From Rhizophagus irregularis (Eukaryota), in NCBI RefSeq assembly GCF_026210795.1, contig NC_089433.1, forward strand, positions 1,550,001-1,614,000: 64,000 bases of DNA. Direction: 5' to 3'. Of this stretch, positions 34,768 to 61,761 are shown in pieces. The notes under the pieces are model-generated. The model saw only the letters and a program-made list of their open reading frames with translations. It searched no databases and was not told where the DNA came from. Positions within the stretch are counted from its first letter, which is position 1; each line of letters begins with the position of its first letter. The position numbers and the translations under genes are program-made.

Positions 34768-36084
34768 AGGACCCTGGAAAATACTTATATAGGTAAGGTC
34801 CCAAAAATATTTTTTATTAGTAGCTCTAAGCATAGGTTTTTACTATGATCACTAAGCATTGTTGATATCTAACCTTAAAAATTATATAAAAATAAGTAAA
34901 TCAATCTTCTAATCTAATTAAATTTTAATTATAACACATATAATTTATAAAATATATTTATTAATTAATATATTTTATTAAATCCAATTTTAAATATGTT
35001 GTGAAGCTAAACAAAACATAATATACAAATGATTAACAATATTCAATTAATAAAATTAATAAACAGTAAAAGAAAAATTCAAAATTAATACTATTACAAA
35101 AAATGTAAATTTCTCCATAAGTATTATACTTACACCCATAAATATTAATATGTAGGTAGTTTCGACCTTGCTGAACAATTTTCAATTAATTTAGAAAGTC
35201 GATTTCATTTGACCAAAGAGGTGTAATTACGCTCTGAAGTTGTAAACGGAGAAATAAAAAATTTGAAAGTTAGTACCATTATGAAAGATGCACTTTTCTC
35301 CATAAGTATTATACCCACACTCATGAAAATTAATATATAAGTAGTTTCGACCTTGCTGAACAACTTTCAATTAATTTAGAAAGTCGATTTCATTTGACTG
35401 AAGTGGTGTAATTACGCTCTGAAGCTATAAACGAAAAAGTGAAAAATTTAAAAGTTATTACCATTAAAAAAAATATGCTTTTCTATATAAATATCATACT
35501 TAGCCTTATGAAAATTAAAATACAAGTAGATTTAACTTGCTGAACAAACTTACTTAAGCATAAAAGATAATTTGATATAACCAAAGTGGTAAGTAGTGAA
35601 ATTATATTTTAAAGTAAAACATATTTATAGTAATTTTATTTAACAAAATAAACATGTATAATATAGTAATTTTATATTAAAAATAATACACTGAGTTTAA
35701 TAAAAATTAAAAAAATACTATTGACAGATAATTAATAAAACATTGAAAAAAAAAATGAAATTTCATTAAAAAAAATTTTTGTTTATGTATTTATATAAAA
35801 TTGTGAAATATAGTACAAAATTAACACTTACCATTAGTGAAAATAAAATAAAAATTAATTATAAATTCAATATATAATATTTTAAAAAGTTATATAAATA
35901 TGAAAAATAAGCAATTAAAAACTTTTAGTATTTTAAAATAATACCAAAAATATGCAATTTAATTATCTTACATAGTATAAAATTTTCTTAAAATTAAGCA
36001 TTATAAAATTCTTACATCATAAAACTTTTCGATGTTGGCTAAGCATCTTGGTACCTTACATATATAAGCATTTTCTGAGGTCCT
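34768..36084. mobile_element. Non-autonomous TIR element with internal ~185-bp tandem repeat
   Basis: ~35-bp imperfect TIRs AGGACCCTGGAAAATACTTATATAGGTAAGG / CCTTACATATATAAGCATTTTCTGAGGTCCT; TSD GTTTCAAT/GTCTCAAT; 2-3 tandem units at ~35110-35590. Confidence 0.75.
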
Positions 36085-37040: not shown

Positions 37041-37800
37041 GGGGTGTGCCAGAAATTACGTGATTTAGTGGGTGGGTGGGGGGTCAGGTCCTGCAATCAG
37101 GTATCACAATATACCTTTTATGGTAATAGTATATCTTTTATAGTAAATAATATATAATTTGTTTATTAAGAAGCTTTTTTGCAATTATCTCACCATCTAA
37201 AAGTCCAATTTTAATGAATTTTTTTTTTGTTTTATAAAGTATAAAGAGAGCTATAAAATAAAAAAAAGTTTATGCAAATTGAATTATTGGATAGTAAAAT
37301 AATTGTATTATAATATATATATAATACTATATAGTAATTTATTTATTAAGAAGCTTTTTTGCAATTAACTTACTATGTAGCAGTTCAATTTTAATGAATT
37401 TATTTTTGTTTTGTAAAGCATAAAAAGGTCTACAAAACAAAAAAAAAGTTTATGCAAATTGGATTATTGGATAGTGAAATAATTGTATTATAATATATAT
37501 ATAATATATGATAATTTATTTATTAACAAGTTTTTTTGCAATTATTTCACCATCTAGCAGTCCAATTTCAATGAATTTTTTTTTATTTTATAAAGCATAA
37601 ACAGGGCTACAAAACAAAAAAAAGTTTATGCAAATTGGATTATTAGATAGCAAACTAATTGTATTATAATATATATATTAATATAATATATTATATATTA
37701 TACTGTATGTATTTTTTTAGCCAATCAGAATTCAATCACATGGTGGGTAGGGGGGTCAGGTCTCTAATTGAGCATAATCACGTGATTTATGGCACGCCCC
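37041..37800. mobile_element. PIF/Harbinger-type MITE with three ~180-bp internal tandem units
   Basis: TIRs GGGGTGTGCCAGAAATTACGTGATT / AATCACGTGATTTATGGCACGCCCC; TAA TSD on both sides; units start near 37163, 37343 and 37520. Confidence 0.88.
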
Positions 37801-40373: not shown

Positions 40374-42535
40374 CCGTATTTTGCGGGCCACAGTACCCCC
40401 CTATGCACAGTACCCTACACAAAAATTTTGTCAGATTTTTTAAATACCTGGATATTTCGCACAGAGACTGGAGACATTCAATTTTTAACCTCCAAAATTT
40501 ATAAAATCTCTGGGTACAACACAAGAAAAAAAACATATACACTGTATAATATCCGGGTATTTATTATCAACTTTATTTATTATATATGATATTACAATAT
40601 GCAATACATTATTAAAATCCTTCAATATAGAACATTATTCTTCATCAGAAGTTAGTTCTTGATTTTGATTTCCATCTTCTCCACTACTATTATTACCACC
40701 ATTGTTTTCTTTACTCTTACCTTTATCTGTTTCAATTTCCCATTCATTTTCATAATCATTTTCTTCGGTATATTCATTTTATTCATCATCTGAATTATTT
40801 ATATCTACCTCATCATCATCCTCCGGCATGCCTAGTAACTTATCATAATCAAATAAGTCATTATCTTTCGAACCATCGGTATTTGTTGAAACTCCACAAC
40901 ATTTGAAAGACCTTCTAATAAGATCTTTGTCAACATCATCCCATGATTCCTTGACCCATGTTGCAACTGTTGAATAGGAAGGTTTTTTAATCCTTCCAGC
41001 TGGAGTAAGAGTATGAATGGTAGAAGACATCTAATCATTATATCGTTCTTTAACCTGCAAATTATAAATAAATGTTAACAAAAATCAAAGAATTTATAAA
41101 TAAAACATGCTAAATTGCTAACAATAAAAAATTTTAAAGAATTATATACAATTTTTACCTTAGCTTTAAAGCTTTTGTTAATTGCAACGTCTAATGGTTG
41201 CAATTTAGATGTGCAACCACCTGGAATTACGGCAATATTTGTATTTTTTTCTACCAACCGATTTTTAACAGAACTTACAATATGACCACGAAAAGAATCC
41301 AAAACCAGTAAGGAACGCGAATTACCAAAAGGGTTTCTTGAGGTCCATACAGTTTCAATCCACCATAGCATTTCCTTTTCATTCATCCATCCTTTTTCAT
41401 TAGCTCGTATATGAATACCATGTGGAAAATTTTCTTTTGGCACATTTTTCAATTTAAAAATGCAAACTGCTGGGAGCTTACTGCCATCAGCCATACATGC
41501 AAAGTACAACTGTAAAAGATGAGCGCTCATGGCCTGTAGTACGAATGCTGACTGTTTTTGCGCCCTTATGGTCTATAGTGAAATTACTTGGCAAATCAAA
41601 CCATAGTGGTGTCTCATCCATATTACCTATATATTTTAATGGATAGTCATGCTGAATCCTTCTATATAAAATATAACTCAAAAAACGTTTTGTTTTTCAA
41701 TCAAATCTGATGGTAATTGTTGTGCTACAGTTGTTCTATGACGTTCGCTAAGATTATATCTTCCTAAAAAACCACTTAACCATTTATTTGAAAATTTAAA
41801 TGAAGTGATATTTGGATTATTTGCTAAAAAATCCTGATTTCTAGACAACGTGATAGCTTTTTTGGTGATCATTTTTCGAGTAACAGGATTTTGATTTGTT
41901 CTTCTTTTACAAACCCACGTAAATAAATCATCTTCTATATCTGAATATTTAGCAGATTTACCCGGATGAAGCTTAAGAACATGAGGCGCAAATGCTAATA
42001 ACTTAGCTTTATTGTTATTCCAATCACGCACTTGTTTTGGTTGAATATTAAAATATTTTGCAGTTTCACGTTTACTTCCTCAATTATTTTCCAAATAATG
42101 CACTACCATTAATTTTTCTCTTACATTCCATTGTCGTCTTTTCTTTTGTGATAAGCGATTACGTGCTTTTGGATTTTTTCTGTTTCTGATAACAACCATT
42201 TTTACTTTGAAATAAATTCGCATCACAAATAAAAGACAAAGAAAAAAATACGCGTTTATCATTTTAAAGAATTTATGTATTATACAAAAATAAGGGGAAC
42301 AGATAAACGTGATTTATATGAATCTTTTTTCCTGAAAAAAGTAATTTTCCTTACTTTTTAAATTTAAATATATCCGGATATTATACAAGGTAAGTATCCC
42401 GGGTACTTTATAAATCTTATACCCCCTTATGCACAGTACTTATGCTGTACCCCCCTATATAATATACCCCGGGTATAGCCTCCAACTCCCTAAAATATGC
42501 ATCATACCCGGGGTACTGTGGCCCCTGTTATACGG
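40374..42535 (-). mobile_element. Pogo/Tigger-like Tc1/mariner DNA transposon
   Basis: TIRs CCGTATTTTGCGGGCCACAGTACCCC / GGGGTACTGTGGCCCCTGTTATACGG, TA TSD, internal transposase. Confidence 0.92.
40635..42199 (-). pseudogene. Pogo-type DDE transposase (HTH + CENP-B-like HTH + DDE), frameshifted
   Basis: FKFSNKWLSGFLGRYNLS, IGNMDETPLWFD, LLVLDSFRGH and IPGGCTSKLQPLDVAINKSFK spread over several broken ORFs; one intron near 41055-41158; acidic tail. Confidence 0.9.
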
Positions 42536-43158
42536 TAATAGCCTAATAGGTGCTATTTCACCTGGTCTTAACATCTAATTGTGATTTGTAATATGTTAAA
42601 TTTTCTATTAAACACAATTTTTGTAATCTATTACACCTTAGAGTTGAGTGTTTAATTTTTTCATTAACTCACGAATTTTAACAATCTCATCATCAATAAT
42701 TTTAATTTCTTGCTGCGCGGCCAAATTTAAAATATGTGCAGAACACCTATAATGTCAAAAAAACTGATCATTAAGTTCTCTTGTAAGTTTTTCTGCAATT
42801 ATTCTTCTACAAACTACCATTGCCGATTCATTATCAGTAGTTAAAGCCAAAGTTTTTTCAAGTACAGTCAACTCTTTTTATAGTTACTCTGTTATAGTCA
42901 CATTTTACTATATAGTCGCACCAGTTGAATGTTCAAAACACTTTATTATTAAAATCTATCATATATAGTCACAATCTATCTATAGTTACTATCACACCTA
43001 TCCTCAAAAATCTTATATTAAAAAGAACCGTTTATAATTATAGTTATATAAAGAATATATTAAATAACTTGGCATCTAATAATTGTATAAAGATGTGTCA
43101 TAGCTTGTTAGAATCGTCTCACTAAGACGAATCGAATGGTGGTAATTTTATCCTTTTA

Positions 43159-43662
43159 CTGTGCAAACAGTCTTATGACTTTATCTTTTATTTATATTTT
43201 AAATCGAAACTAGAGAGTAGAGACGAACAATATTACAAAATAAGAAAATAAACTAATAAAAAATAAAAAGAATAGCTTCACGATTCATACAAGTAAAGAA
43301 ATCTAAACTAAAATAAATTAAAGAAAAGAAAAACTAAACTATTACAGAATCGCATACTCCAACTTTACCCGAAGGCCAGTGTAAGTCAACTATCCAACAT
43401 CCAAAAATCCAGTCTGTTACCAGAAAGAGATCCTAAGAGGTTGAACTATTAAGCAGCACAGAAAATCCAAGTGCGAGATCTAAGATCCACCCTGAATTAT
43501 AGAAGAGAATATCCAAGAAATCCAGGAATCCTGAGAAACTGACGCCAAAGAAGAGATGTGATGATGAAGAGAAGTATTAGAAGAAGAAGTGATAGAGAGG
43601 CTTCGTGATTTTGAGGAAGCGAAAATCCCTTGAGATTCTTCCCAAGCATAGAAAAGAACAAG
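43159..43662 (-). mobile_element. 5'-truncated LINE 3' end (relative of 46692-54671), copy A
   Basis: Reverse complement matches the end of ORF2 (DSWISWI..SII.GGS) and the 3' UTR ending GTCATAAGACTGTTTGC; flanked by TTTTATCCTTTTA. Confidence 0.9.
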
Positions 43663-43675
43663 TTTTATCCTTTTA

Positions 43676-44069
43676 CTATGCAAACAGTCTTATGACTTTA
43701 TTTTTTATTTATATTTTAACTTCAAAAATTTTAAAATCGAACAATATTACAAAAATAAGAAAATAAATTAATAAAAAATAAAAGAGTAGCTTTATGACTC
43801 ATACAAGTAAAGAAATCTAAACTAAAATAAAATTAAAGAAAAGAAAAACTAAACTATTACAGAATCGCATACCCTAACTTTACCCGAAGGCCAGTGTGAG
43901 TCAATTATCCATCATCCAAAAATTCAATATGTTACTAGAAAGAGACCCTAAGAGGTTGAACTGTTAAGCGGTGCAGAAAATCCAAGTGTGAGATCTAAGA
44001 TCCGCCTCGGATTATAGAAGAGGATATCCAAAAAATACAGGAATCCTGAGGAACTGTCGCCAAAGAGAG
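43676..44069 (-). mobile_element. 5'-truncated LINE 3' end, copy B
   Basis: Same 3' UTR with a shorter 5' extent; flanked by TTTTATCCTTTTA. Confidence 0.9.
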
Positions 44070-44216
44070 TTTTATCCTTTTATGATTACTGGCTGATGAG
44101 TTATTCAACAAAATGTTAAGCATCAGCATTATTATATTTCTTGATTTACGTTTACTGCGTCATTTAACATTTTGCTAAATATCTCGGTACCTAGTAATTG
44201 TAAAAAGACGATTAAT

Positions 44217-44433
44217 GAGTATCAGTGTCATGCAATGGGTATAGAATGAGTAGGCAACGTGTACCTAGCTTCAGATCAGCCTAAAATGGCCCGATAGGGA
44301 ATGTCTTCAAGTGGTGCTGTTACCTGAGGAATTAAGTACTCGGTTATAATGGTATCTATGGAGATGATAGGACACAAACCCGAAATTAGTCTCATAAGAG
44401 GCAATGGGTGGTCTGGCCGTAAACACTAGCAAA
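44217..44433 (+). mobile_element. Short GC-richer retro-insertion, probably a 5'-truncated SINE of a second family
   Basis: Flanked by the 17-bp direct repeat GTAAAAAGACGATTAAT (44200-44216, 44434-44450); no ORF. Confidence 0.65.
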
Positions 44434-44943
44434 GTAAAAAGACGATTAATAGCTTATTGGAATCACCTCATCAAGACGAATCGAATGGTGGTAGGCTTAT
44501 CTCTCCGTGATCAATATCGACGGAGTTACTACTTAAAAACTATTTAATATTTTTTAATTTTGGAAATTGATCTAGTGATTGGATTTCGATATATTTTATA
44601 CCATTAGATTCGTCGCATTAAGACGAATCGAATGGTAGTAAGATCGTCTCTCTAGGATCAATATTGGCAGAATTATTACACAAAAAACCATTAATATTTT
44701 TTAATTTCAGAAATTAATCTAATGATTGGATTTCAATGTATTTTAAACCATTAGAACCGTCTCATCAAGACAAATTAAATGGCGGTAAGATCATCTCTCT
44801 ACAATTAATATTGGAGGAGTTACGATACAATAAAGTTTTAAGTATAATTTTGACTAAAATTATGTTAATTTTTGGCCAGAATTATGATATACTAATATAA
44901 GAAATTTTTTATATAGTCACATCTCTTTATAATCACCAAATAT

Positions 44944-46676
44944 ATGGGTTGGTCACCCTATCTTAGTGGTTAGTCACTGAGACCCTCATTAAGCCTGAGT
45001 ATGGTGAGGTCGCAGGTTCGATTCCTATGACCACGGAAATAAAAGAATTTTACTGCGGACGCTACAACCAATAGTGTGAAGGTACAGGGGATTAGTGTAG
45101 TTGGACTGCATCATGGTGAATTAGTGTGTACGGTTAGGCCGCACATTTCAACTAAGGGTCATGGTGTCCTTCTAACGTTCCCTATGAGGCCATTGGCATG
45201 TGCGCAGTCCTGTCCGGCGAGGTCGCTACTATACCTTGGGAGGAGGCTTCCATGGCCAGGTGGTCACTCTACGATACCGCTTGGGGTCAGTAATGGCTAG
45301 ATGGTCGTTCTAGATGGTAAAGCTGACGGTGCAATGTCTTAGTGGTAGTTTGACCTTCTGTTAGGTCATAGACCAACCAAGGTGTTCGTGCACAGACAGA
45401 TAGCTTGGTGATTGGGTTCCGATTCCATCTCGATGGGCGCAATGGTTGGTGATTCATAGTGGTTCGATACCCACCATAAGGGATGATCCTGGGTAACACC
45501 TACAAGCTTACTGTCCAGGTGGTCACTACAAAGTATACCACTTGGGGATTACAACTGTACTATCGGTGGTGGGTAATCGTGGGCTGTAGTGGCCTTTGAG
45601 TGAGACCTGTTACCTAATATGGTGGTATGGAAGGGTCTAGATGTTTGAAGGTTATCTGACGAAAGTCCTCTGTGACAGTAGTAGTGGTGAGGGGTTTATA
45701 ATAGTAGCCATTACAGTATCATGCAACAGATTAAAGGACGAGTAGGGTGGTGTTCTTCCGATCCAAAGGCCTTCGGGTCCCTGGGGTATGCCTGATTGAT
45801 GGACGTGCTGGATAAGTTGTCTTGGTTAAAAGGTGGCCTGGATGACATCTGGTGGTTCAATGATGGCGAGGATACGAACGACCTACCTCCATAACCTTCA
45901 ATAGAGGGTGCGGAAAGTAGTGGCTATAGTTGTTTCCGAAATTCAATTGGCAAATCCGAAATCCGAAATTACGAAATCGTAATTAATTACGTATTCCGAA
46001 ATTCCGAAATTTGCATAATAGTGCGAAATTGCGAATATCTCGGGATCTAGTGATCAGATTTTGATGATCTTACTACCATTCGATTCGTCTCATCGAGACG
46101 AATCTAATAATATGTGTTTCATATCTATAGCACCGATATTGATGGAGTTAATTTACTATAAACATTTAATGAATTTTTGTGTCGGAGCACGATCTAGTGA
46201 TTAGATTTGAATGAATTTACCACCATTCGATTTGTCATGACGAGACGATTCTAATGGCGGTAAGATCATCTTTCTAGCATTGAAATTAACGGAGCTATTA
46301 TGCTATAAATATTTAAAAGTTATTGGTATCGGAGCGCGATCTAGTGATTGGATTTAAATGATCTTACTACCATTAGAATCGCCTTATCGAGACGAATCAA
46401 ATGGTAGTAAGATCATCCAAAACGGATCACTGGGTGCCGAGTTATTATTTATTAAAGTTTTTATATATAAATCGGCAAAAATTAAGGCTAATTCTGGCCA
46501 AATATTTTCGTAATACGAAATTAATTACGGAGTCCGAAATTAATTACGGAATACGGAGTTTTTCTAATGAATTACCTAATAATTACAGAATTACGTAATT
46601 ACGTATTTCTGTAATACTAAAATAATTTCGGACACAAGTATAGTAGTGGCCACTAAACGTACAATACACTTGTAAA
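44944..46676 (+). mobile_element. ~1 kb tRNA-headed SINE-like element, copy 1 (interrupted by a MITE)
   Basis: A-box-like TCTTAGTGGTTAG and B-box GGTTCGATTCC at the 5' end; non-coding body homologous to 54687-55698; flanked by TSD ATAATCACCAAATAT. Confidence 0.8.
45925..46642. mobile_element. hAT-type MITE inserted near the 3' end of SINE copy 1
   Basis: TIRs TATAGTTGTTTCCGAAATT / AATTTCGGACACAAGTATA; 8-bp TSD GTAGTGGC; the empty site is visible in SINE copy 2. Confidence 0.9.
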
Positions 46677-46832
46677 ATAATCACCAAATATGAGGATCAT
46701 CGCAACTCTTTCCTGAAATTTTGAAAATACTAATAAAATTTATTTTTGAAATTTTCGTTCGAAAATTTCTTAGTGCTCGTTCTAAATACTAATATTTTCC
46801 CAGTTGCTTTCCTCTTTACTGAGCTTTAAACT

Positions 46833-48956
46833 ATGACTACACCTCCAACTCCTTCTGTTATTAACCCGGATATTCCACCGCCACCGCGTCCTGTTATTTC
46901 TACTCCCTCTGGAGACTGACCTTTATCTCCCACTAGTACCGCTGGCGCACCTAATAAACGTACACGTACTGTCTCTGATGACGCGATGAATGTTGATATA
47001 ACTTCGCCCTCTGCTCCTGCTCCCTCCCTTATTTCTACCGTTCCTTCTGGTCTTCCTGTCAACAAAGTCCATGTGATTACCTCTCCTCATAATACTACTA
47101 CTCCTGTTGATACTGTTGACGCTTCTATCCATGCTCCCTCCAACACCAGTGGTAAAGGCAAAGCTGTCGCCTTTGATATCCCAGAACGATGACCATCTCC
47201 TGATGGGAATGCTGCTGCTATCAAATCTGCACCTTCTCGTTATCATGCTGCGGCCTACCTACGCGATGCGCCTGACGCGTTCAAAGCTAAATTCACCACC
47301 AATCGCTCCATGTGTGACGAAGTGGATTGTTCCCTCTCCCGTTATTCTTCTTATGGCGCTCGCGCACGATGTGAAGGATCAGGCGATAACAAGAAAATCC
47401 TTGTCTTCTTCAATAATCATGATGATTATACCGATTGTATCACCTCCCCACGTGCTGATCTCCTCGATTTGGCCTTCAGTCATTATTCCCCTGCAGACGT
47501 CAAGCTCAGTGATGAAATGAAGTCTTTGTTCGTCACTGATATTCCACTTTTTCTAACCGAGACTCAAGTCCGTCAGGCATTTTCCAGATATGGCACGGTA
47601 ATCAAGTGCAAATTTACTCCTAGGAAACATTACTATAATGGACATATCCAGTTTTCCTCCGTGGATGCAGTTACCCAATTTAATGATATATGGGCGATCA
47701 TTTGCCTTGGTAATTCTTTACGTGTCTGCCCGGCATCCTTTTCGAAATCCCAATGCGATAGCTGCAGAGAACATGTTGCTATCCTCGCCGGCATCCCAAA
47801 GAATATTAAAGAAGCTGACCTGTTGGAAATTGCTACTCAAGTTAACGCTAAGGCCTTTAACGTTCCTCTATCTATCAGTTCTTACAAGCCTAAACCCTAT
47901 GTATATTTGAATTTCTCCTCATTTGAATCTCTTGAAGCTGCCAAAGAAATGACCGTGGCTTTCCGCGGCAAAGGATTAACATGGCACCCTCCCAATGAAG
48001 CACAAACTTTATGCCACGTTTGTGGGCGTCCTGGTTGTTCTCCTTCTGTATGTAATCTTCGTATCACACAGAAAGTGGATGATCGCCTTAATAAACTTTA
48101 TTCTTGCTTCAATGCTGGCCCTAGACGTGGTTGTCAGGATTCACGCCAATTACGTGAAAATTCCAATTCCCGTTCAAGATCGCGATCCAATTCTAGATCC
48201 CGCAATAATAATTCCTCTTCATCCCGTTCCGACAACAATAACAATAATACTAACACTTCTCGTCCCAATACTTCTCAAAGTACCAACCGGACCAACAATA
48301 ATACTAATAATCACAGGAACAATGAAAATTCTTCTGGCTCTACTCAATCTCCACATAAACCTCATTCTGTCAGTTTTACACCACCTACTTCTCCATCTGA
48401 CAATTATGCCCATACACTTCCTCAACATATTATTGATGAATTAAAAGCGCAGATCAAAGAGATCGCTAAAACCCTACGTACTCTAGAGGAAACTGTCTCT
48501 TGGATGAATGATACTATCACGTCCCATGAGTATAGGCTATCTGAGCTTGAATCAATGATGAATTATGACAACCCTAATGACTCTGATTTGTATCCGCCTC
48601 GTGATGATCATGAAAATCAAAATCATTCTTATGATATAAATGGATGGGATGATGCTCCAACCCAAGACACGAATTCTGAATTCAATCTTCCTCCCCATAC
48701 TTCCCCTTCTCTTATGGACACTTCTCCTGATGCTTCTTTCTCAGTCCTGAATCCTAATTCCGTCTTATCAAGAAGACATGTCCCGTTACCTAACTCCCGA
48801 CCTACTATTATTGCTCCTGATGCTAATACTTCCCGTTTGCAATCGGAAATTTTTAATGTCACCAATACACAAAAGAATCTTTCTGCCCAACTTGGTTCGA
48901 TTATGGAAAAATTGGACTCTTTCTCTCCCTCAAAACCCTCCCCTTTCAATGATTGA
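46833..48956 (+). pseudogene. LINE ORF1 (RRM-like domains, Cys knuckle, RS/N-rich linker, coiled coil) with two in-frame TGA stops
   Basis: ATG 46833 is in frame with ORFs 46986 and 47310; SLFVTDIPLFLTETQVRQAFSRYGTVIKC and KPYVYLNFSS (RRM-like), CHVCGRPGCSPSVC, LKAQIKEIAKTLRTLEE. Confidence 0.85.
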
Positions 48957-51900
48957 ACACCAATTTATATCGGGTGCTTCACAGGGATCTCACCCCCCTG
49001 ATAGTGCGCTACTTAATATTAATAGTCCTAATAACTGTCCTTCTTCCTTTTCTCCTCTTATTAATTTTGGACAAATCAATGTTAATGGTTTGTGCTCCCC
49101 TATTCGACAATTATATTTGTTAAATTATTTTCTTCATTCTTCTTTTGGCGTTTTATCTTTAAATGATACTCGTCTTACTTCTTCCAGTGCTAAATTTATT
49201 TATCAAACTGAACATTCCCAACATAATTTTAAGTCCTATTAGGCTCCTTCCCCTTCTAATTCACGACCTCATGATGGTGTTGGTCTTTTACTTCGCCATC
49301 CCTTACATAAACATGTTCAGAAGATTGATCCTTGGAAAGGTCGTCTTTTAAAATTAGATCTTTTTTTTCATCAAACTAAAATTTCTATTATTTCAGTTTA
49401 TATTCCTCCTTATCATTCTATTCATTACAAAGAACGTGATGCTATTTCTGCACAACTTAATTTATGGCTTGATAGAGCCCGTTCTAATAATTATCATGTA
49501 GTTATCCTTGGTGATTTTAATGCAGATGAAATTTCACATTCACATCTTCCTCAACATCATTTGAAAATTTTGCGATCACTTTCTTCTCGATATTTTACAG
49601 ATCATCAATCCCATATTTCTTCAATTTCAGGTCCTAGTTCTACCTTTTATCATCAGAATGGTTCTTCAAGACTTGATTATATTTGGTCATCACCTGGATT
49701 TCCTGCTCCCAGTCTTTTCTCTTATGTTGAATCTTGTCCCAAGTTGAATGATAACCAATTTACTGATCACCGTGTCCTCATTGCGGCCTTCGACTTTAAT
49801 TCTTGTTTCGCTACTTTAGCTAAAGCTAGACTAAAACAGAAAAGCGAACAACGCACCATTTTTCTTTACAAGAATTTAAAAGAAGACACTTGGGACACAT
49901 TTTCTAACGAAGTAAATTCACGTCTCGAGTTGTATTTGGCCACACACCATCCTTCCGTATCTTCACTTTCAGCTATTTCCTTAGACAAACTTTGGCACGC
50001 TTTTAAACGCTCTATTCTTGGTGGTGCCATTGATTCTCTTCCATTTCAACATGTATCTAATACTCATCATTATAAATATTCTCCGGAACTTACGATGCTT
50101 ATTGCTATCAACAAATTCTTGGATAGATTATTGTTTAAATTGACCACATCTAGGACTAATCGTCCCGCTCAGATTTCACAAATGATTAATTCTTTACCTA
50201 CACAATTAATTATTTTGAAATCCCTTTAACAGATTATACTATACCTATTTATAGTACTACACCACTTCCTGCTTTTGTCAAATTTTTGCGTTCACAAAAA
50301 GCTTTGGTCTCTGCTTATCTTTCCACGCTATTTCATCAACATCGTGTGGATTCCATTGAATATTATACTGCTCTTAGAGACGAACAATTCTCTATGTCAC
50401 CGGGTTCCTTTATTTCTTCAGCCCTGTCAGTGGAACATCGCTCTATCGTTCTTGATAGAGTCTTGGTTGTAATTGACTCCAAACCCACGTTACTTACCAA
50501 GCCTTCAGACATCAAACAAGCTGCTATCAAACACTTCCAATCGGTTGTTACTCCTCCATTGGTTCAGCATTCTTCTATTGATGAATTTCCTCCACGCTGG
50601 CAAAGAGCATATACTCCTATTTCTGACATTGACTTGTCTTTATATACTTCGGTCTTGTCTCCTATTCTGGAAGAAGAATGGAAGAACACTATCCAGTCTA
50701 TGCCTAATAACAAAGCCTCTGGTCCTTCAAAAATTTCTTATGAAATGCTCAAACATTTAACTGGAGAAGCTTTCAATTTGTCTCTTGTTTTAGCCAATGC
50801 CTGCCTTACTCATGGTGATATTCCTGCGGATTGGTGTGAAGCGCTTGTTTATCCCATCCTGAAGCCTCATGAATTTGATGCACAATTAAAGAATACACGA
50901 CCTATCACTTTATTAGAAACTGTTCGTAAATGTGTGGTCAAGGTCGTTACAACTCGTCTTTCAAAAATCCTAGCTGATAATCAAATACTTCAGGGTGGTA
51001 ATTTTGCTGGATTACCAGGTGGATCCACTGACATTCCTATCAAAATGCTTGATGCGATTATTCATCAACGCCGCTTTGACAAAACTGATGACCAAGAGTT
51101 ATGGATTGTTTCCCAAGACATTTTTAAGGCCTTTGACTCGATTGATTTAAATATGCTCAAGTTGGCTTTAATCCGTTTACATATTCCGCCCTTGTTGATA
51201 AAATTTATTATCAATCTTTTCACAAGACGCAATAATAAAATTATTACTCATTATGGTGATACTTCCGGATATAGAGTTAGAATCGGTATTGATCAGGGTG
51301 AAATTATTTCCCCATTATTATGGGTGATATATTTAGATCCTTTGCTTACTACACTTAATCGAGAAGCTTGTGATCCCTTCCTTTTGAAATCTTCTGCGTT
51401 ATTAGATTATTCCCCGATTGAATATGAACAACATAACCTTCCTGTTTCACATATCACATTTATGGATGACTCTACTTTGATTGCTTCATCTAAACGAGGA
51501 ATTGAAGATCGCCTTTCCATTACAGCTGAATTTTATACTTTAAATAATACTCAAGCTAATTCAGCTAAATATATCTTTCTTTCTTCTGAACAATTCTCTC
51601 AACCTGTAGTGTTTGATCTTTTCCCATCTTCTTTAATCCAAACTTGTACTCTTACTTTAAAAGCTTTAGCTTTATTCAAGTCTTTTCGCTTTTTAGGTGT
51701 CTGGTTTTGCCTTTCAGCTTCTTCTCGCTTTGTTCATGATCAAAGTACTTCCATGGTCAAAGACATGGCTGCTCTACTCAGTCCTAAGAAACTTTTGGCA
51801 CAACATGTGGCTTATCTTTATAACGTTGTCTTACTTCCAAGGCTAGAATTTCGCCTACAAACCACATTATTTGCTGAATCCACCATTAATCGCATAGTTT

Positions 51901-54408
51901 CTCCAATGCTTTCTCTCATTCGACAAAAGGCTGGTTTAGCCTCAGTCACCCCTCTTTCCGCGCTTTTCACATTGTTGCCGTTCTCTATTCAACAAGCATT
52001 TGGTCGATTTCTATCGTCTCATGTGGCTTCATGGCAAAGAATTTTTTCTCACCCCTTACATAAAACCTTTGCCAATTATATGATTACTTATATCCAAAGC
52101 TTCCTAGATTGTGATGCCTGTCCTTCTACTATTGACTTGGAACCATGATCCCATACATTTTCCTTGCGAACACATTCTTTGTTTAATTCTTTATTATTCT
52201 CTTCTCGATTAAATATCACATGGTCTTTATTGTTCCGACCTCCAAGAAAGGATCAACGTTCGGTGATTCCACTCTGGTCTATTTTACCTAAAGAATTATT
52301 CACTTCCATGAAAAATGTTCGAACCAATTTTGGTACTCGTTTCCTTGCCCAACTGGTTTCTCCGTGTGGCTCCAGATTTCTTTCATGGAAAGATTTACGC
52401 TTTCTTAAACGAGTTTCGAACAAAGGATCTGTGCCTACTTGGTTTACTTATTTATTTAATTTAGTTGTTATTTCTAATTCTTCTTCTTTTTTTCTTTTAC
52501 CACAATTTAGAATACCTAATTCCTATACTGTTGCTTCTATCTGTTCTATAGATATTAGTCGAAATTATTTGTTTAATCCACAATGGGCAATTTTTTTTAA
52601 TCGCGATACTAACTCTTTCCTTGTTGGTTGTGTGATCATTACCTATCCTGCTCCGTGAAATGAAGCTCTTATTTCACATTGGATTGCGTCATCTGTCAAT
52701 GACTTATTATCAGAATTCACTGCATGCCAAGGTTGTGCCTCTGCTATTCCATGATCCTCTACTTCCAAAACATTGCTTAAACGATGTCCTTCTAAAAAGT
52801 GCTTCTCTTATGTGCCTTTATCAAGTCTTATCCGTTACCCTACGAAGCCTCGTACTTATATACATGCGGATACTCGTTCGGTCTCACTTTCCGCTTCGTT
52901 AGGCTATGCCAAATCTCTTTCTTTTTGCTCCAGTTCGGCTACCTCCTATGCTTAACCAAGTGTCTAGGATTTCTGATCTCCAACTTCCTTCTTCGGTGTC
53001 TACACTGTATATTGATGGATCCTTCCTTCCTCCTTCTAGTCATCCGACACCTTCGATGGCTTATGCATGGACTGCTATCAATTCTGATGGTTTTATTCTT
53101 GAATCTCATTATAATACCATTCCTTCCCTCTTTCCCTCTGCATTGCGTTCCGAAATTTTTGCCTTATTGCATAAATTGGATTCCCTCCCTCGGTATTCCA
53201 AGATTACTGTCGCTACTGATTGTGCTCAATTAATTTCCTTATGGTCTACGTATGTGGATGCTCCGTTCATTTCTAAAATGCTTAAAGAATTCAATCACCT
53301 TCTATGGTTTTCGGCACGAGCTATTATCTCACAAAAGAATCTGGAAGTTACTTTAATCAAGGTTCCTGCTCACGCTGACGATTCTTTGAATAACCATGTT
53401 GATGACTTAGCGAAAGCTGCTCATACAGACTCACGTCTTTCCTCTATTTCGCCTGCATTCTTGGCTCCTTGCATTTTACAATTTGATTCTTTACCTGTGG
53501 ATATGAATATCCGGAAATTCATTGGAGATATTTTTGACGCCAAGAGTCTTTTGACTCTTGCTTTATTACCAAGATTCAATCTTAATTCCTCTATTTCAGA
53601 TATTGATTGGGCTTGTACCAAATTTTGTTTTAATAATAAACAATTACAATCCTCCCATCGAAATGGCCGGTCTGAATTTTGTGCTTTCCGTATCAAGATT
53701 TTATTGGATATGCTTCCGACACTTACAACTCTTCAAAGATGAAAGCCTCATATCTATGATCCGAGTTGGCTCTGTCCTCAGTGCAACTCCTCTCCTGAGA
53801 CTTTAGACCATTTATGGACTTGTCCGTATATTTTACCTGAATTTAGTCCTTTTAATACTTTTAAAACACTTCTGATGAACCTTAGAACCGTTTGTCTTGG
53901 AAAATTTCTCTCCGTGACTCCTTTGAAATCTTTACCGGACTCCTTCGCTGTGGAATTTACGGCTATGGATTGTTGGAACTGTGACCCTCCTTCAAATTCT
54001 TGTCTGCGACTTGCACGTGGACTTATACCGATATCTCTTACTAGTTTTCTTGAAACACATTTTTCATTATCCACTGTTTGTTCTATTTTTGATACACCTT
54101 TACATGATTTTCATTTTGATCTCTACGTGCAAATCTGGTTGTGCTGTTCTGTTTTCTTTCACCATTGGGAATCAGCTCAAGGCATAACCAATAAAATGAA
54201 ATCGTCCACTATTGGACCTTCTCCTACTTCTCATCCTTCCTCGCAAATTTCTCCTGCAATTTCGACACCTTCCTTGGCGACAGCTTCCTTGGATTCCTGG
54301 GTTTCTTGGGTTTCCTCTTATATAATCCATGGGGGATCTTGGATTTCGCATTTGGATTTTTGGCGCCGCTTAACAGTTCAGCCTCTACTTAGGATTTCTT
54401 TTTGGTAA
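48949..54408 (+). pseudogene. LINE ORF2: AP-endonuclease, reverse transcriptase, RNase H and C-terminal zinc finger; several stops and frameshifts
   Basis: EN: QINVNGL, LGDFNAD, SRLDYIW, TDH. RT: KASGPS, RPITLLE, QDIFKAFDS, GIDQGEIISPLLW, FMDD, FRFLGV. RNase H: YIDGS, RSEIFA, ATDC, KVPAH..DSLNNHVDDLAK. Zinc finger: CPQC....ETLDHLWTC. Confidence 0.95.
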
Positions 54409-54686
54409 CGGATTGGATCTTCAGATATGCTGGATAGTTGACTCACACTGGCCTTCGGGTAAAGTTGAGGTATGCGTTTCTGTAATAGTTTAGTTTTCTT
54501 TACTTAATTTTATTTTGTTTAGATTTCTTTACTTGTATGAATCGTGAAGCTAGTTCTTTTTGTTTTTTATGTTTAATTTTCTATATTATATTTGTAATAT
54601 TGTTCGATTTGAGTTTTGTACTTTTCATTTAAAATTTATAATAAAAGATAATGTCATAAGACTGTTTGCTCATAATCACCAAATAT

Positions 54687-55698
54687 AGGGTTGGTCACCC
54701 TATCTTAGTGGTTAGTCACTGAGACCCTCATTAAGCTTGAGTATGGTGAGGTCGCAGGTTCGATTCCTATGACCACGGAAATAAAAAGAATTTTACTGCG
54801 GACGCTACAACCAATAGCGTGAAGGTACAGGGATTAGTGTAGTTGGACTGCATCATGGTGAATTAGTGTGTACGGTTAGGCCGCACATTTCAACTAAGGG
54901 TCATGGTGTCTTTCTAACGTTCCCTAAGAGGTCATTGGTATGTTCAGAGTCCTGTCTTTAAGGTCACTGCATAGTATACCTTAGAGGTGGTGTCCTGTCC
55001 TGGTGGTCATTCTACGATACCACTGGGGGTACGGTTCGCTGTGCTAGATGGTCCCAGTAGATGGTAAAATCGTAGGGTGCAATGTCTTAATGGTAGTTGA
55101 CCTTCTAATAGGTCTTAGACCAACCGTGATGTTCCTGAACAGAACAGATAGCTTGGTGATTGGGTTCGATTCCCTTCTCTGATAGGCCCTGGTTGGTGAT
55201 TTCTGGTGGTTGATATCCACCATAAGGGATGATCCTGGGTAACACCTACAAGCTTACTGTCCAGGTGGTCACTACAAAGTATACCGCTTGGGGATTACAA
55301 CTGTACTATTGGTGGTGTGTAATCGCGGGCTGTAGTGGTCTTTGAGTGAGACCTAGTACCTAATATGGTGGTATGAAAGGGGTCTAGATGTTTGAAGGTT
55401 ATCTGATGAAAGTCCTCCGTGACAGTAGTAGTGGTGAGGGGTTTATAATAGTAGCCATTACAGTATCATGCAACGGATTAAAGGACGAGTAAGGTGGTGT
55501 TCTTCCGATCCAAAGGCCTTCGGGTCCCTGGGGTATGCCTGATTATGGACGTGCTGGATAAGTTGTCTTGGTTAATAAAGGTGGCCTTGATGACATCTAG
55601 TGGTTCAATGATGGTGAGGATACGAACGACCTACCTCCATAACCTTCAATAGAGGGTGCGGAAAGTAGTGGCCACTAAACGTACAATACACTTGTAAA
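54687..55698 (+). mobile_element. ~1 kb tRNA-headed SINE-like element, copy 2 (uninterrupted)
   Basis: Same head as copy 1, second B-box GGTTCGATTCC near 55163, many hairpins, flanked by TSD ATAATCACCAAATAT. Confidence 0.82.
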
Positions 55699-57454
55699 AT
55701 AATCACCAAATATGGACTGTCCCAAATGTGTGACTATAAAGAAAGTTGACTGTAGATTAAATTCTGTTAAAACTGATTTTATTGCATTTGCTATATTGTT
55801 TCCAGTATGATGGGTAGTAAAAGAAATAATATCTAATAAAAAGTTTTTTAGGTTCCAATTATTGTCAACATAATGAATTGTCAGACCAAGAAATACATCA
55901 TTATTACATGTAGAAGTCTACATATCTGTTGTTAAAGATAATTTGCCCAGAATTGCATTTAGATCTTGTATATTTTTACGTTTTTCTTTAAAATAATCAA
56001 CTACCAAAGTTTTTACTGTTTTTTTCATCTGGAATTTGATATTGAAAATCAAATTTATTGATCATTATTTTAAATCGCAAATTTTTAACAAATCATTTGT
56101 GAAATTATGCTTGTATATCGGCGGATTTGTTTACTTTTGCATAATGCTAAATTTTGAATGATTTTCATAATATCCGTCACCCAAAACTGGTTTATAATGT
56201 CATGAAATCACCTGATTGAATATCACTTGACTAAATAATAAGTCAAGTGAAAATCTACATTTGTGAAACTTAAATTATTTAACGTAAAATAGACACAAAA
56301 AAACCCATTTCGTTAACAAAAAACCCATTTCTCACCTGCATAGTATTTTTAATGTGTATTATTAGAAAGTAAGTATGTTTTAATAAAACAAAAAGTAAAA
56401 TAAAAATTTATATAGACACGATAGCTATGAATATTTATAAAAGTATTCTAAGACTCATTTAATATTTAAAAAATTTTTTTTTTTATAATAACTTTCATAA
56501 AATTGTCCATTTTTTGCATTTTTCAAAACATATTATTAATTCTTATTTATCTTGCTGTAGACAAAATAGGAACTTTATATCCAAACAAATTGTAAGCATA
56601 TGTATTATTGATTTTTACACAATAAAGATTTAGAAGCTATTGTATAAAGTGAGATTCCACAACAGATATTATCAGTATTGCTAAGAATAATATTTATTGT
56701 ATTTTGGCTTAAAAGAATTATTTATTAAATTTATCAAATTATTGTATTAATAAAACCAAATAAAATTTTTTTAATGTTTATCCCAGGTCCTACTGCGCCA
56801 TATGTAATAATTTGTGTAACAAAAGTACCTTAAAATAAACATGTTAATTAGAGGGTGAACAAATCCGCCGATATGGTGCAAAGAAAATAATTTCACACAT
56901 AAATCAATTCTCTAAAATATTTCAAACTTTTTTTTTACAACATTTAGCGAAATAGCATGATATGTATTAATATATATATTTCTTTGAAGTTATGGGCTAT
57001 TTCTATTATATTTTAAGCTGAATATATTTATATATCATTATCAGATTTTAGTATTAGTAAACGATTAGGCAAAAAAAGGTATATGCATTATTCTCAATAT
57101 CTTTATATTTGTTGAGATCTTTAATGCATATTCCACATACCTTTATTCTCTAATATAAAGGTTTAATATAAAAGTCTGTTGTATACTTTTCTGCTTTAAA
57201 TAAATTCAAGCTCAAAAAAAACATAAATGAAACATAACAAAGACTTGTATATAGAATTTATGACTATTCTTAGCTATCAGTGCCTATTTTTTTGATTACC
57301 ATATAATAATCCTGTAATGTATATTTTGTAATAATTGACAATATAATTGCTATTATAATTTAATATATATTAAAATACCATATTACAATGAAATGTAAAA
57401 AAACAATAATTTTGTAATATACTATGACAATTATCCTTTTATATTAGTTATAAT

Positions 57455-60400
57455 CAGTGTTGGCATTGGACTCATTCCAATTGATTTAATTGGACGATTT
57501 GGACAATTGGACAATTGGATATAGACCAATTGCGTCCAATTGTCCAATTGGTCCAATACACATTTGTTGGATTTGGACCATGACCAATTCATCCAATTAG
57601 GCAATTGGACGTACAATTGGACTTGGTCCAATTCATCGTCCAATCAAATTTTCGTAACACATAATGATAATTGATAAATCGTCAAACCTGAATTTCCGAT
57701 AATCTTTTTTTTTAATTGCGATATTAAAAATGACGCGCGAAAAACATAAACTTAGTGGATATTTTTTAATGTTAGAAGAAAAGTCCAATAAATATAATAA
57801 TTATGCAGTTTGTCAAGAATGTGTTAGGGGTTTGGATCGAGAGGAAGCGATGAAACAGAGGTTTACAAATACAAAACGTGCATGTGCAAAGCATCTTGAA
57901 AATTGTCCTTATTGGGCTGAAAGACACTCTTCGGAAGAGACTCAAGCTATAATTCAGAAAGCTATGGAGTATGGTTCGAAAAAACCAATTAAACGACAAT
58001 GATTATCAATAGATAATGACTTTGATGAGGGTAAAACTGAAGTATTAACACCGCTATCAAGCACATCAACACCTTCCCAAGGTTCTTCTAATTTGAACAA
58101 TTTTTTTTATAAATCATCACGTGCAAACAGCATAAGTAGCATATCAGATATTTCATTTCGAAGCTTTGGTCCCCTTGATAACTATATGTATCATGAATTG
58201 AAGCCAGAACAAATAGAAACATTTGAATGTTTACTATTAGATGTTACTGTAGCTTGTGGTTTTGCTTTTCATTGGGTTGATAATCCAGCAGTTAAAGAGC
58301 TCTTTAAATGGCTTAATCCAATGTTAGAGTTACCAGATCGTAAGCAGCTTAGCGGCAGAATTCTTAAAAAAGCATCCAATAACCTTAAAGATATTGTTCT
58401 TAATGATGCTATTAATGATGATCTTGGGATTATGCTAGCTTTTGATGGTTGGAAAAATGTTTCTCGTCAAAATTTATTAGGGTCCGTTTTATTTACTTCA
58501 GAATGCAATATGATTATATGGAAAGTTGAGGATATCAGGTGGAAAAAGATGTACTAGTGATATTATAATAGATGAAACGAAAAAATCATTTGATGAGCTT
58601 GAAAAAAAGAATATTAAAATTAATGGATTAATTACGGACTCTGCTTCAGAAAATGTTGCTGCAAGGTAATCAATAATAATTATTTTTAATTTTAGGTTTA
58701 TAAAATTATTTAAAATTATTTATTAATTTTATTGATTTAGAAAACGATTGCGCCTCCAATACCGGGACAAGATATTTTTGCCGTGCTTTGCGCACCAGAT
58801 GAATTTGTGTATTGGAGATATATTTAAAGAGTCATCAAGTCTGAGTGATGCTGCTGAAGGGGCTATTAGTTTAATTACTTTTTTCAGTCGGTCAAAAGTA
58901 TGGCTTGGACGACTTCAAATTAACGCGCAGCTATTTACAAAGTTCATATTGCATTAGTAACCTCAGCTACTACTCGATGGAACTCATACTATTACTGTTT
59001 TGCTAGTTTATTAAAAACAAAAAGGGCTTTACGTGTATGTATTATGCAATAAAAATTTTGGGTTGATCTTTGTTTTTACTTTTTAATTAAACAATTTTAT
59101 TTTTTTTTAGAATCTTGCAACGAAAATAGATGAAAAAATTATTTCTGATGGCTATGATTTTCCCGAAAAACATTTACAATGCATTTTAGATAATAATTGG
59201 TAGATTTCTATTAAAAAAATTGAAACCTTTTTAATTTCATATTGTGCAACACTTAATAAACTTCAACGACAAAATTCACGATTGCACGAAGTTCTTCACG
59301 GATTTGGTAATGTAGTTATGACACTTAAAACATTTGAAGATCAAGAATTAGCCACTACTCTTCTTTCAAAAATTGAGCGACGATGGAGAGATTGGGAACA
59401 GCCTTTCTTGTTACTATCATTTTTGCTACATCCATTTTATCGTGATACAAAATTTAATCCTGCATTAAATTTATCATTTCCTCACCTAGCAAAATGGGTT
59501 TTATATTATTATTGTGCATGGTTTAAGGAGGAACCAACAGTTTTACTAGCTGAACTTGAAGAATATAGATCAAAAAAATATCCTTATACTGATTCTATTT
59601 CTAAGCAATTTAAAAATAATATTTTAGATTATTGGAATTTTACAAAAGGTTCTTCAAAAGAATTGTATAGGGTTGCTCAACGAATTTTTTCAATTACTGT
59701 ATCAACAGCTTCATTGGAACGATTGTTTTCAACAATGGGATGGTATCACTCAAAACGGAGGAATCGATTAAAGGTACAACATATTAGCATATTTATTTAT
59801 ATAATTTAACTACAAAGTTTTTTGCAATGTTTTTTTTGGTATTTTAGGCGGAAAAAGTGTTAAGTTTAGCCCAGATTCGTGCAAGTATGCAAAGACAACA
59901 ACAGCTTTACGAGTTAGATTATCATGCAAAACAATATCAAACAACTATAACAAGAACTTCAGATAATATAGAATTTGCAAGATTAGAAAATGATGATGAA
60001 ATTTTCATTCTATCTAATAATGAAGGTTCTGATACTGATAGTGAAACAAATGAATATGATAATGAAAGTATAAATAATATTTATACACAACCATTAGCAT
60101 CTGCTAACGAATGGAGAAAAACAGTAATGGATTGGATAGAAATGATTGAAAATGAATTACAGGACCAAGATAATGAATTAGCAAGCATTACTGATACATA
60201 TGATATTTCTATTGAAAATATTGAGCAGATACAACATCCTGCTATTGATCCGCAAGCAAAATGGGAATTAAAAAATATTTTTATAGAAAATTTAGAGTTA
60301 CCAGGTTACTTAGAAGATTTTATTATTGGTAAAGCTTAATAAATAAATTTAATAAATTTGCAAATTTCGAACTTTAATAAATCATGTAAAATTTATGATG

Positions 60401-60562: not shown

Positions 60563-61761
60563 TAAAGCTCCTAATGGTTCGGGCTAAACAGGAGAACCGA
60601 TCCGAAACCGGCTCAAAATTCGGTTCAGTTCGGTTTGGGTATTAGAACTGAAAAACCAGCGGTTCAGTTCAATTTAATCCGATTTTTTATAAAAATGCGA
60701 AAAATCAAATAGACGCTCATCTAGTGATCGTATAAAGTCGAGCCATATATCATTGGATTCGTCTCGACGAGATGTGTTGAATGGTGGTAAGATCATATCT
60801 CTAGCATCGATAGATTATACGTTAGTCCACGCTAAATGATTTATCAATAATTGGAATTATTAAGCTATCTATCGATGCTAGAGACATGATCTTAGCGTCA
60901 TTTGACGCGTTTCAGCGAGACGAATCCAATGAATATAAATTCGTCCGTATACGACTACTGGATGGCGAATAATGTCAAGTTTCGCATTTTTTTAAAATTT
61001 TTGAGCGTTAAAAATTAAAAATTCCGATATATGAATTTATTCATCGTCCAATGGTCGTACAAATATGAATTAGGACTCATTGGATTTGTATCGATGAGAC
61101 GAGTCGAATGGTGGTAAGATTACGTCTCTAGCATCGATAGATAGCTTGCTAATGCCAATTTTTTATAAATCATTTAGTGTGAATTAACTTACGATCTATT
61201 AAGACTACAGACATGATTTCACCACCATTCGACTTGTCACATCGAGACGAATCAAATGAATCCTAATTCATATTTGTACGACCATTGGACGACGAATAAA
61301 TTCATGTATTGGAATTTTTAATTTTTAACGCTCAAAAATTTTAAAAAAATGCGAAACTTGACATTATTCACCATCCAGTGGTCGTACACGGACAAATTTA
61401 TATTCATTGGATTCGTCTACCTGAGACGCATCGAATGACGCTAAGATCATGTCTCTAGCATTGATAGATAGCTTAATAATTCCAATTATTGATAAATTAT
61501 TTAGCCTAGGTTAATGTGTGATCTATTGATGCTAAAGACATGATCTTACCACCATTCGATGCGTCTCATCGAGAAGAATCCAATAATATATGGATCGACT
61601 TTGTACGATCACTAGATGGACAGCTATTCAATTTTTTGCATTTTTATAAAAATCAGATTAAACCAAACCGAACCGCCAGTTTTTCGGTTTAGTTTTTACA
61701 GATTTTGGCTCTAATCCGAACCGTCTATAATCTGGACCAAACTGATCTGTTCAGAGTTTTA
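60563..61761. mobile_element. Foldback (long-palindromic) hAT-type MITE
   Basis: Ends TAAAGCTC / GAGTTTTA, TSD GTTATAAT on both sides; the arms ~60640-61150 and ~61190-61680 are reverse complements. Confidence 0.85.

Follow-up and report, generated by a model that had tools for sequence, protein, structure and literature searches.

A probable 1-kb tRNA-headed SINE of Rhizophagus irregularis and its neighbouring LINE share one 15-bp target in an array nested in a DNA transposon

A LINE/SINE system nested in a DNA transposon is known from crocodilians, in which the LINE Tx1-Mar and the SINE SINEU-3 are found in Mariner-N4_AMi (PMC4494074). In the cited passages of that paper an element is considered target-specific when more than 20% of its flanks fall in one target family, and target RNA transcribed along with an element is described, for elements other than these, as making specific integration stronger. 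The fungal SINEs listed in the cited part of a second source comprise MgSINE (472 bp), mgsr1 (800 bp), Egr1 (700 bp), EGH24 (900 bp) and Foxy (PMC5063351); in the cited part of a third, Egh24 is given as 884 bp and Eg-R1 as 657 bp (PMC10648671). For R. irregularis, the cited passage of Maeda 2018 reports a genome without SINEs (PMC6123716). The SINE order is listed in the curated R. irregularis library published in 2024 by Oliveira and Corradi, in its cited passages without structure, length, head or target (PMC11075540). The cited parts of that source and of a further one (PMC11075540, PMC11952901) list R. irregularis SINEs without describing them, and some of these are upregulated in colonised roots. 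The literature searched contained no description of the SINE presented here or of target preference in R. irregularis; Repbase, Dfam, the GitHub library and most subscription papers lay outside that search, and the element may already be within the curated 2024 library.

The window, a 64-kb stretch of R. irregularis DNA to which all positions below refer, is AT-rich eukaryotic DNA overall. Evidence on copies was taken from the window and from the contigs of six public sequencing runs. A SINE-like element had been proposed at 54687-55698 in an earlier, sequence-only reading of the window. These boundaries proved exact, with identical 15-mers (ATAATCACCAAATAT, designated T1) abutting the element at 54672-54686 and 55699-55713. 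The main point, missed in that reading, is that a LINE next to the SINE uses T1 as well, the units being arranged in tandem within a DNA transposon. Two further T1 copies lie at 44929-44943 and 46677-46691. All four are on the plus strand and are found exclusively at unit junctions, against 0.002 occurrences expected by chance, and the order of the array is T1-SINE-T1-LINE-T1-SINE-T1.

The full-length LINE occupies 46692-54671 (plus strand). Pfam matches placed an RRM domain in ORF1 and APE, reverse transcriptase (RT) and RNase H domains in ORF2; no match to an integrase or protease was obtained in the LINE region. This copy is dead, being disrupted by stops and frameshifts (tblastn, stops in three frames). 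Its RT is 91% identical to many R. irregularis proteins among the matches listed (120 of 229), and R2 and L1 RTs scored alike when the PDB was searched with it.

The array is enclosed by a DNA transposon at 42865-55752, which is flanked by TA at either end and has inverted ends of 23 bp that match at 20 of 23 positions; judged by these ends, the host element would be of Tc1/mariner type. T1 is positioned 39 bp from its right end. A second array, on the minus strand at 43144-44082, contains three copies of another 15-bp target, T2 (44068-44082, 43661-43675 and 43144-43158, one with one mismatch), and lies approximately 280 bp from the left end. Here T2 separates two 5'-truncated LINE 3' ends which are 81% and 83% alike to the 3' end of the full LINE and belong to a related but different subfamily. 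Both fragments cease to match the full LINE nearly together, at 54269 and 54271. Every junction in the window is of T1 or T2, and both targets recur in the public runs. Past 55754 the flanks in those runs disagreed (agreement 0.53), which is what the end of a transposon should show. A broken pogo-type transposase (DDE_1, HTH_Tnp_Tc5, CENP-B_N; 41075-42079, minus strand) adjoins the host element on the outside. Elsewhere in the window are a broken hAT-type transposase (Dimer_Tnp_hAT) at 58003-60339 and tandem repeats of approximately 185 bp at 35065-35434 and of 177-180 bp at 37144-37678.

The SINE at 54687-55698 (copy 2, plus strand) is full length, comprising 1012 nt of non-coding DNA at 46% GC with T1 at either end. 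The second copy claimed in the sequence-only reading was present, at 91% identity, on the plus strand at 44944-46676 (copy 1). It is split into two parts, 44944-45924 and 46651-46676, by a 717-bp MITE at 45925-46641. The MITE has inverted ends and is flanked by a duplication of 9 bp (45916-45924 and 46642-46650), the length of which points to a Mutator-like element. This MITE contains 147-bp hairpin repeats, as do 43085-43152, 44434-44795 and 60684-61652; the last of these is an inverted repeat with 470-nt arms (87% complementary) and a 29-nt spacer, drawn from a 147/327-bp repeat family. Copy 2 contained no stop-free frame of more than 69 codons on either strand and gave zero blastx matches to 120 LINE proteins, and self-blast detected no terminal repeats within the SINE. 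The 3' tail (55666-55698, plus strand) comprises a palindrome of 12 nt and, at its end, a small stem-loop.

Divergence between the two copies is 2-4% at both ends and 16-25% in the middle (54888-55187), of which at least three versions exist when a third version in the public runs is counted. The combination of a diverged middle, similar ends and a third version suggests that the copies are mosaics, likely formed by template switching or gene conversion. The ratio of observed to expected CpG was 0.55-0.58 in the SINE versus 1.02 in the window, and many of the minor variants at 54762-54882 in public runs were G>A or C>T, several of them at CpG; taken together, these values fit methylation of the copies.

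The A and B boxes reported for the head were recovered on the plus strand, 56 nt apart, with scoring against what we take to be the consensus sequences. The A box (54701-54711) has one mismatch, and the majority letter of the public runs at 54706 is C; the B box (54757-54767) is a perfect match. A pair of this kind was found in 2 of 5000 dinucleotide shuffles. The self-pairing ends of the head, TGGTCA and TGACCA, were located at 54692 and 54770. With relaxed settings, ARAGORN returned a sub-threshold tRNA-Leu(AAG)-like cloverleaf, scored as a pseudogene, at 54706-54779 (plus strand). The call holds up to 92% of the threshold and was equalled by 6 of 500 shuffles; the head falls under both the default ARAGORN threshold and the Rfam threshold. 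The head locally resembles the tRNA-Leu of the window (P 0.012), where an intron-containing tRNA-Leu(TAA) gene is found at 19396-19493.

A second A/B-like pair had been noted at 55149-55173 (plus strand). Such a pair is present, with boxes at 55149 and 55163, but the gap between them is just 3 nt and the perfect B box is missing from this position in copy 1. A second internal promoter was rejected on these two grounds, and the segment is more likely a T-loop-like hairpin. The lack of any run of five Ts in 1 kb had also been remarked upon. The statement is true (there is a single run of four, at 54791), and just 19 of 630 stretches of SINE size in the window are likewise free of such runs, but so are 59% of 2000 dinucleotide shuffles of the SINE (P 0.59). 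The absence is therefore expected by chance at this composition and carries no meaning. The first downstream run of at least five Ts, at 55844-55849 (plus strand), is the predicted Pol III terminator. It lies 146 nt past copy 2, so that a transcript ending there would include T1.

The element had further been described as highly structured, with abundant hairpins and with several differences between its copies that fall in loops or keep G-U pairs, and had been read as structurally constrained. Minimum free energies did not bear this out, with whole-element z scores of -0.15 for copy 2 and -0.43 for copy 1. A z score below -2 was obtained in 1 of 16 windows of 300 nt, the other 15 being at chance; 150-nt windows wholly within the SINE (plus strand) ranged from -1.87 to +1.34, and the folding energy of the 3' third was at chance level. 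Helix counts were no higher than in shuffles (P 0.07-0.59, six tests). The five hairpins named are all present in copy 2, but the longest of them (55008-55018/55069-55079) is lost in copy 1. RNAalifold on the two copies found 8 of 286 pairs altered on both sides, and 6 of these 8 fall in the diverged middle, the least securely aligned part; a covariation test that preserved the substitution spectrum returned one doubly changed helix (P 0.18-0.42). With folding z scores near zero and covariation short of significance, strong structural constraint across the 1 kb was not upheld.

The only structural support in the SINE is a hairpin module that each copy carries three times and whose repeats show compensatory differences. 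The module has the shape stem-GGT-loop-ACC-stem and is found on the plus strand at 54952-54990 (M1), 54998-55028 (M2) and 55260-55292 (M3); all six matches to its motif on the plus strand of the window are inside the two SINE copies. Pairs were counted from the motif anchor because MAFFT misaligned one of the six modules. Beyond the anchor, pairing was observed in 33 of the 36 stem cells, versus 14.2 with random arms and 24.2 with permuted arms, and the pair types vary across modules, one position, for instance, being A-T, T-A or T-G. The value of 33 was reached by 0.8% of 720 arm permutations, a fraction that is not a probability, as the six modules are not independent; the pairing result is accordingly support rather than proof. 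Loop and stem variants of M1 occur among loose ends of the public runs; those from runs X1, X5, X6 and X8 include forms whose loop carries indels while most of the stem is preserved. The loop of M3 is complementary to 55331-55340 in both copies.

The SINE was present in 20 of 24 listed public runs, representing 15 studies and four organisms. Contigs on 361 nt of the SINE numbered 2588 in run X1 and 1655 in X6. In run X8, one head contig had a depth of 512.6, versus 3.5-8.5 for six diverged head contigs; if the diverged contigs are single-copy, this would correspond to approximately 60-150 near-identical SINE copies. The family is large and varied, with many variant copies that appear to be dispersed. 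A 960-nt contig from a polyA RNA library (run X15, record 9) contains the head and two body segments and shows presence, not transcription. The SINE was covered in run X15, and the LINE 3' end and outer flank were uncovered; missing cover carries no evidential weight.

Junctions in the runs were of several kinds. An empty T1 site, with the host left flank directly before 55699, was read in 26 contigs of run X1 and 1 of X4. The order LINE end, T1, host end was read in 1 contig of X5, and T1 preceded by the SINE tail or the host flank in 4 contigs of X6. A SINE tail followed by T1 and a 5'-truncated SINE was read in X1 (joint 55713 to 55513) and in X15 record 11, where one piece is just 29 letters long. 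In one contig of X5 a SINE tail, its last letters being ACACTTGCAAAG, runs into a T2-like stretch, behind which a SINE head begins. The differences listed for one contig of X5 record 10 read LINE end, T2-like stretch, SINE head. In these T2-type junctions of X5 the SINE and the LINE appear to share their last 8 or so letters. Summed depth in X1, which was not treated as copy number, was 198,000 at 54652, 127,000 at 54670 and 102,000 at 54676-54679, inside T1, and T1 is evidently a common neighbour of the LINE end in this run. The occurrence of empty, LINE-T1-host, SINE-T1-SINE and T2-type junctions indicates that the units are mobile independently of one another and that their targets recur.

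The earlier interpretation, a structurally constrained non-autonomous retroelement, stood in part. The structural constraint over 1 kb was not supported, whereas the features of a tRNA-derived SINE were found: a head with A and B boxes, a non-coding body, no terminal repeats, a 15-bp target-site duplication (TSD), 5'-truncated copies and many copies overall. Transcription by Pol III, capture of an ORF2 protein and target-primed reverse transcription are established SINE biology. We consider it likely that the SINE is transcribed by Pol III and inserted by the enzymes of the adjacent LINE family at preferred sites in a DNA transposon. The link between the SINE and the LINE rests mainly on their common target. 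No extended common 3' sequence was found between them (best blastn E 3.4), and the T1-type SINE and LINE tails in the window diverge after TTG; this lack of an extended common tail counts against a simple SINE-LINE pairing.

By this likely route, Pol III would start at the internal A and B boxes and transcribe the body to the first downstream T run. An ORF2 protein, supplied by an APE-RT-RNase H LINE of this family that is still intact, would then bind the 3' tail of the SINE, nick the target and prime reverse transcription. The 15-bp duplication would restore the target and later SINE or LINE copies, some of them 5'-truncated, would reuse the site, a pattern visible in the arrays; as each insertion restores the target, arrays of target-unit-target can grow. 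At least two unrelated 15-bp targets appear to be open to this process, since each is seen joined to both SINE and LINE ends. The thrice-repeated hairpin module, whose stems seem to stay paired despite sequence differences, would most likely serve RNA stability or RNP assembly.

A conceivable but unlikely variant is that target choice is inherited through the RNA. The transcribed trailer, carrying its own 15-bp duplication, would pair with the nicked target, so that T1-type transcripts would go to T1 and T2-type transcripts to T2 by means of one LINE enzyme. Were this so, the element would be a self-guiding 1-kb modular SINE and a parasite of a LINE and a DNA transposon alike. As SINE and LINE both use two unrelated 15-bp targets, it becomes testable whether the endonuclease or the RNA trailer chooses the site, which bears on site-specific retrotransposon tools.

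An improbable alternative is an ordinary SINE without target preference that piled up locally and was later spread with the host DNA transposon. T1 does lie within a multi-copy DNA transposon with which insertions could travel, the junctions read are few, and flanks are mixed at the loose ends at 54725 and 54784-54804. Hitchhiking, however, would copy one fixed arrangement, whereas T1 is found repeatedly in several contexts (empty, with the LINE only, between SINEs, before a truncated SINE) across runs of organisms A, B and D, and the second target, T2, is used likewise.

Known RNA families and sequence collections were searched for relatives of the SINE. The Infernal comparison with Rfam suggested in the sequence-only reading gave, for both copies, no family at gathering level and none under E 0.36. 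Fungi_SRP (RF01502) matched copy 1 at 12.7-15.4 bits, against a gathering value of 65, and did not match copy 2; what is matched is the hairpin at the 5' end of fungal SRP RNA, over 15 nt (55327-55341, plus strand), and the likeness is a weak lead. An SRP RNA or 7SL-derived SINE was rejected, as there was this 15-nt hairpin likeness alone and no helix-8 motif. A retrozyme was rejected on the absence of an Rfam ribozyme match and of a hammerhead core by descriptor, and a telomerase RNA because the telomere-template motif was not found by descriptor. The descriptors used are those which we take to represent the helix-8, hammerhead and telomere-template motifs. The head pattern had 0 matches in metagenome contigs and none in plasmids. 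It had 1 match in prokaryote genomes, taken as chance, and 4 in viral contigs, in unrelated tRNA-like or other contexts and without blastn likeness; a further search of viral contigs gave 0 matches. The LINE protein was confirmed in 0 of 9 viral-contig candidates. Neither SINE likeness nor a B box was found in the best 80 of 187 metagenome loci with related LINEs; an Rfam scan of 20 of those 80 loci found nothing, and a search of 25 of them for flanking duplications found nothing convincing.

These results bear on the idea that the element is a cellular structured RNA, for instance an SRP-related RNA with a tRNA-like promoter leader, which was retroposed and whose master copy keeps a host function. 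The repeated hairpin module, three T-loop-like motifs in the SINE, the weak Fungi_SRP match of copy 1, an excess of G over C on the plus strand of the SINE (280 versus 184) and the presence in an RNA library are in its favour. We regard it as very doubtful, given the lack of an Rfam family at gathering level, an SRP match confined to 15 nt of one copy, the absence of helix-8, hammerhead and telomere-template motifs, a middle that differs so widely between copies, and no relative in the 80 metagenome loci or the other collections searched. For the body taken by itself, descent from a retroposed cellular ncRNA, the other option raised in the sequence-only reading, is conceivable. Hardly credible is a single LTR-like element with the two 1-kb copies as its terminal repeats and the RT region inside: two direct repeats, 97-98% alike at both ends, do flank an RT-coding region, but T1 stands between all units, the region inside encodes APE, RNase H and an RT of non-LTR type without an integrase or protease match, the repeats are 16-25% different in the middle, and LINE without SINE and SINE without LINE occur in the public runs (LINE-T1-host, SINE-T-SINE).

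As a probable target-preferring SINE served by a LINE, the element can be set beside described systems. It resembles known fungal SINEs in being non-coding and multi-copy; in the cited passages some of those are tRNA-headed, and their lengths extend to 0.9 kb. This likeness is one of description, and target preference is unmentioned in the cited passages on these SINEs (PMC5063351, PMC10648671). The length called unusual in the sequence-only reading does top the fungal range at 1012 nt, but with other fungal SINEs measuring 470-900 bp, 1 kb is high and not unique. Mg-SINE and SINE2-1_BG carry the 3' end of their LINE partner according to the cited part of PMC3747384, whereas the R. irregularis SINE has a few letters of it at most.

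The L1Tc/NARTc and ingi/RIME pairs of trypanosomes likewise consist of a LINE with APE, RT and RNase H and a short element that depends on it, and the cited passages describe tandem copies flanked by the same TSD and a relative site specificity for them (PMC5814959). NARTc differs in being a truncated version of its LINE, with a Pol II promoter and a ribozyme, and is not tRNA-headed in that account (PMC5814959).

The closest likeness is to SINEU-3/Tx1-Mar, as far as the cited passages describe that system (PMC4494074). In both, a SINE and a LINE have a target in common inside a Mariner-type DNA transposon, and tandem SINEs sandwich the TSD, which is 16 bp in the SINEU-3 system and 15 bp in R. 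irregularis (PMC4494074). Both also have two unrelated hot spots per host element, of which the one near the left end (here T2) is used in the opposite direction and the other, lying more to the right (here T1), in the same direction (PMC4494074). The heads differ, being derived from U2 snRNA in SINEU-3 and from a tRNA with A and B boxes in R. irregularis (PMC4494074). Unlike the crocodilian system, the R. irregularis SINE is 1 kb long, and its LINE is fungal, with RNase H and an RRM-containing ORF1. A defined SINE is thereby provided for a symbiotic fungus once reported to be SINE-free, in which most repeats are unclassified, and target-preferring LINE/SINE pairs nested in DNA transposons would extend from crocodilians to an early-diverging fungus. 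By likeness of arrangement, the R. irregularis LINE and SINE would work like SINEU-3/Tx1-Mar, and the resemblance of the crocodilian and fungal systems probably arose by convergence.
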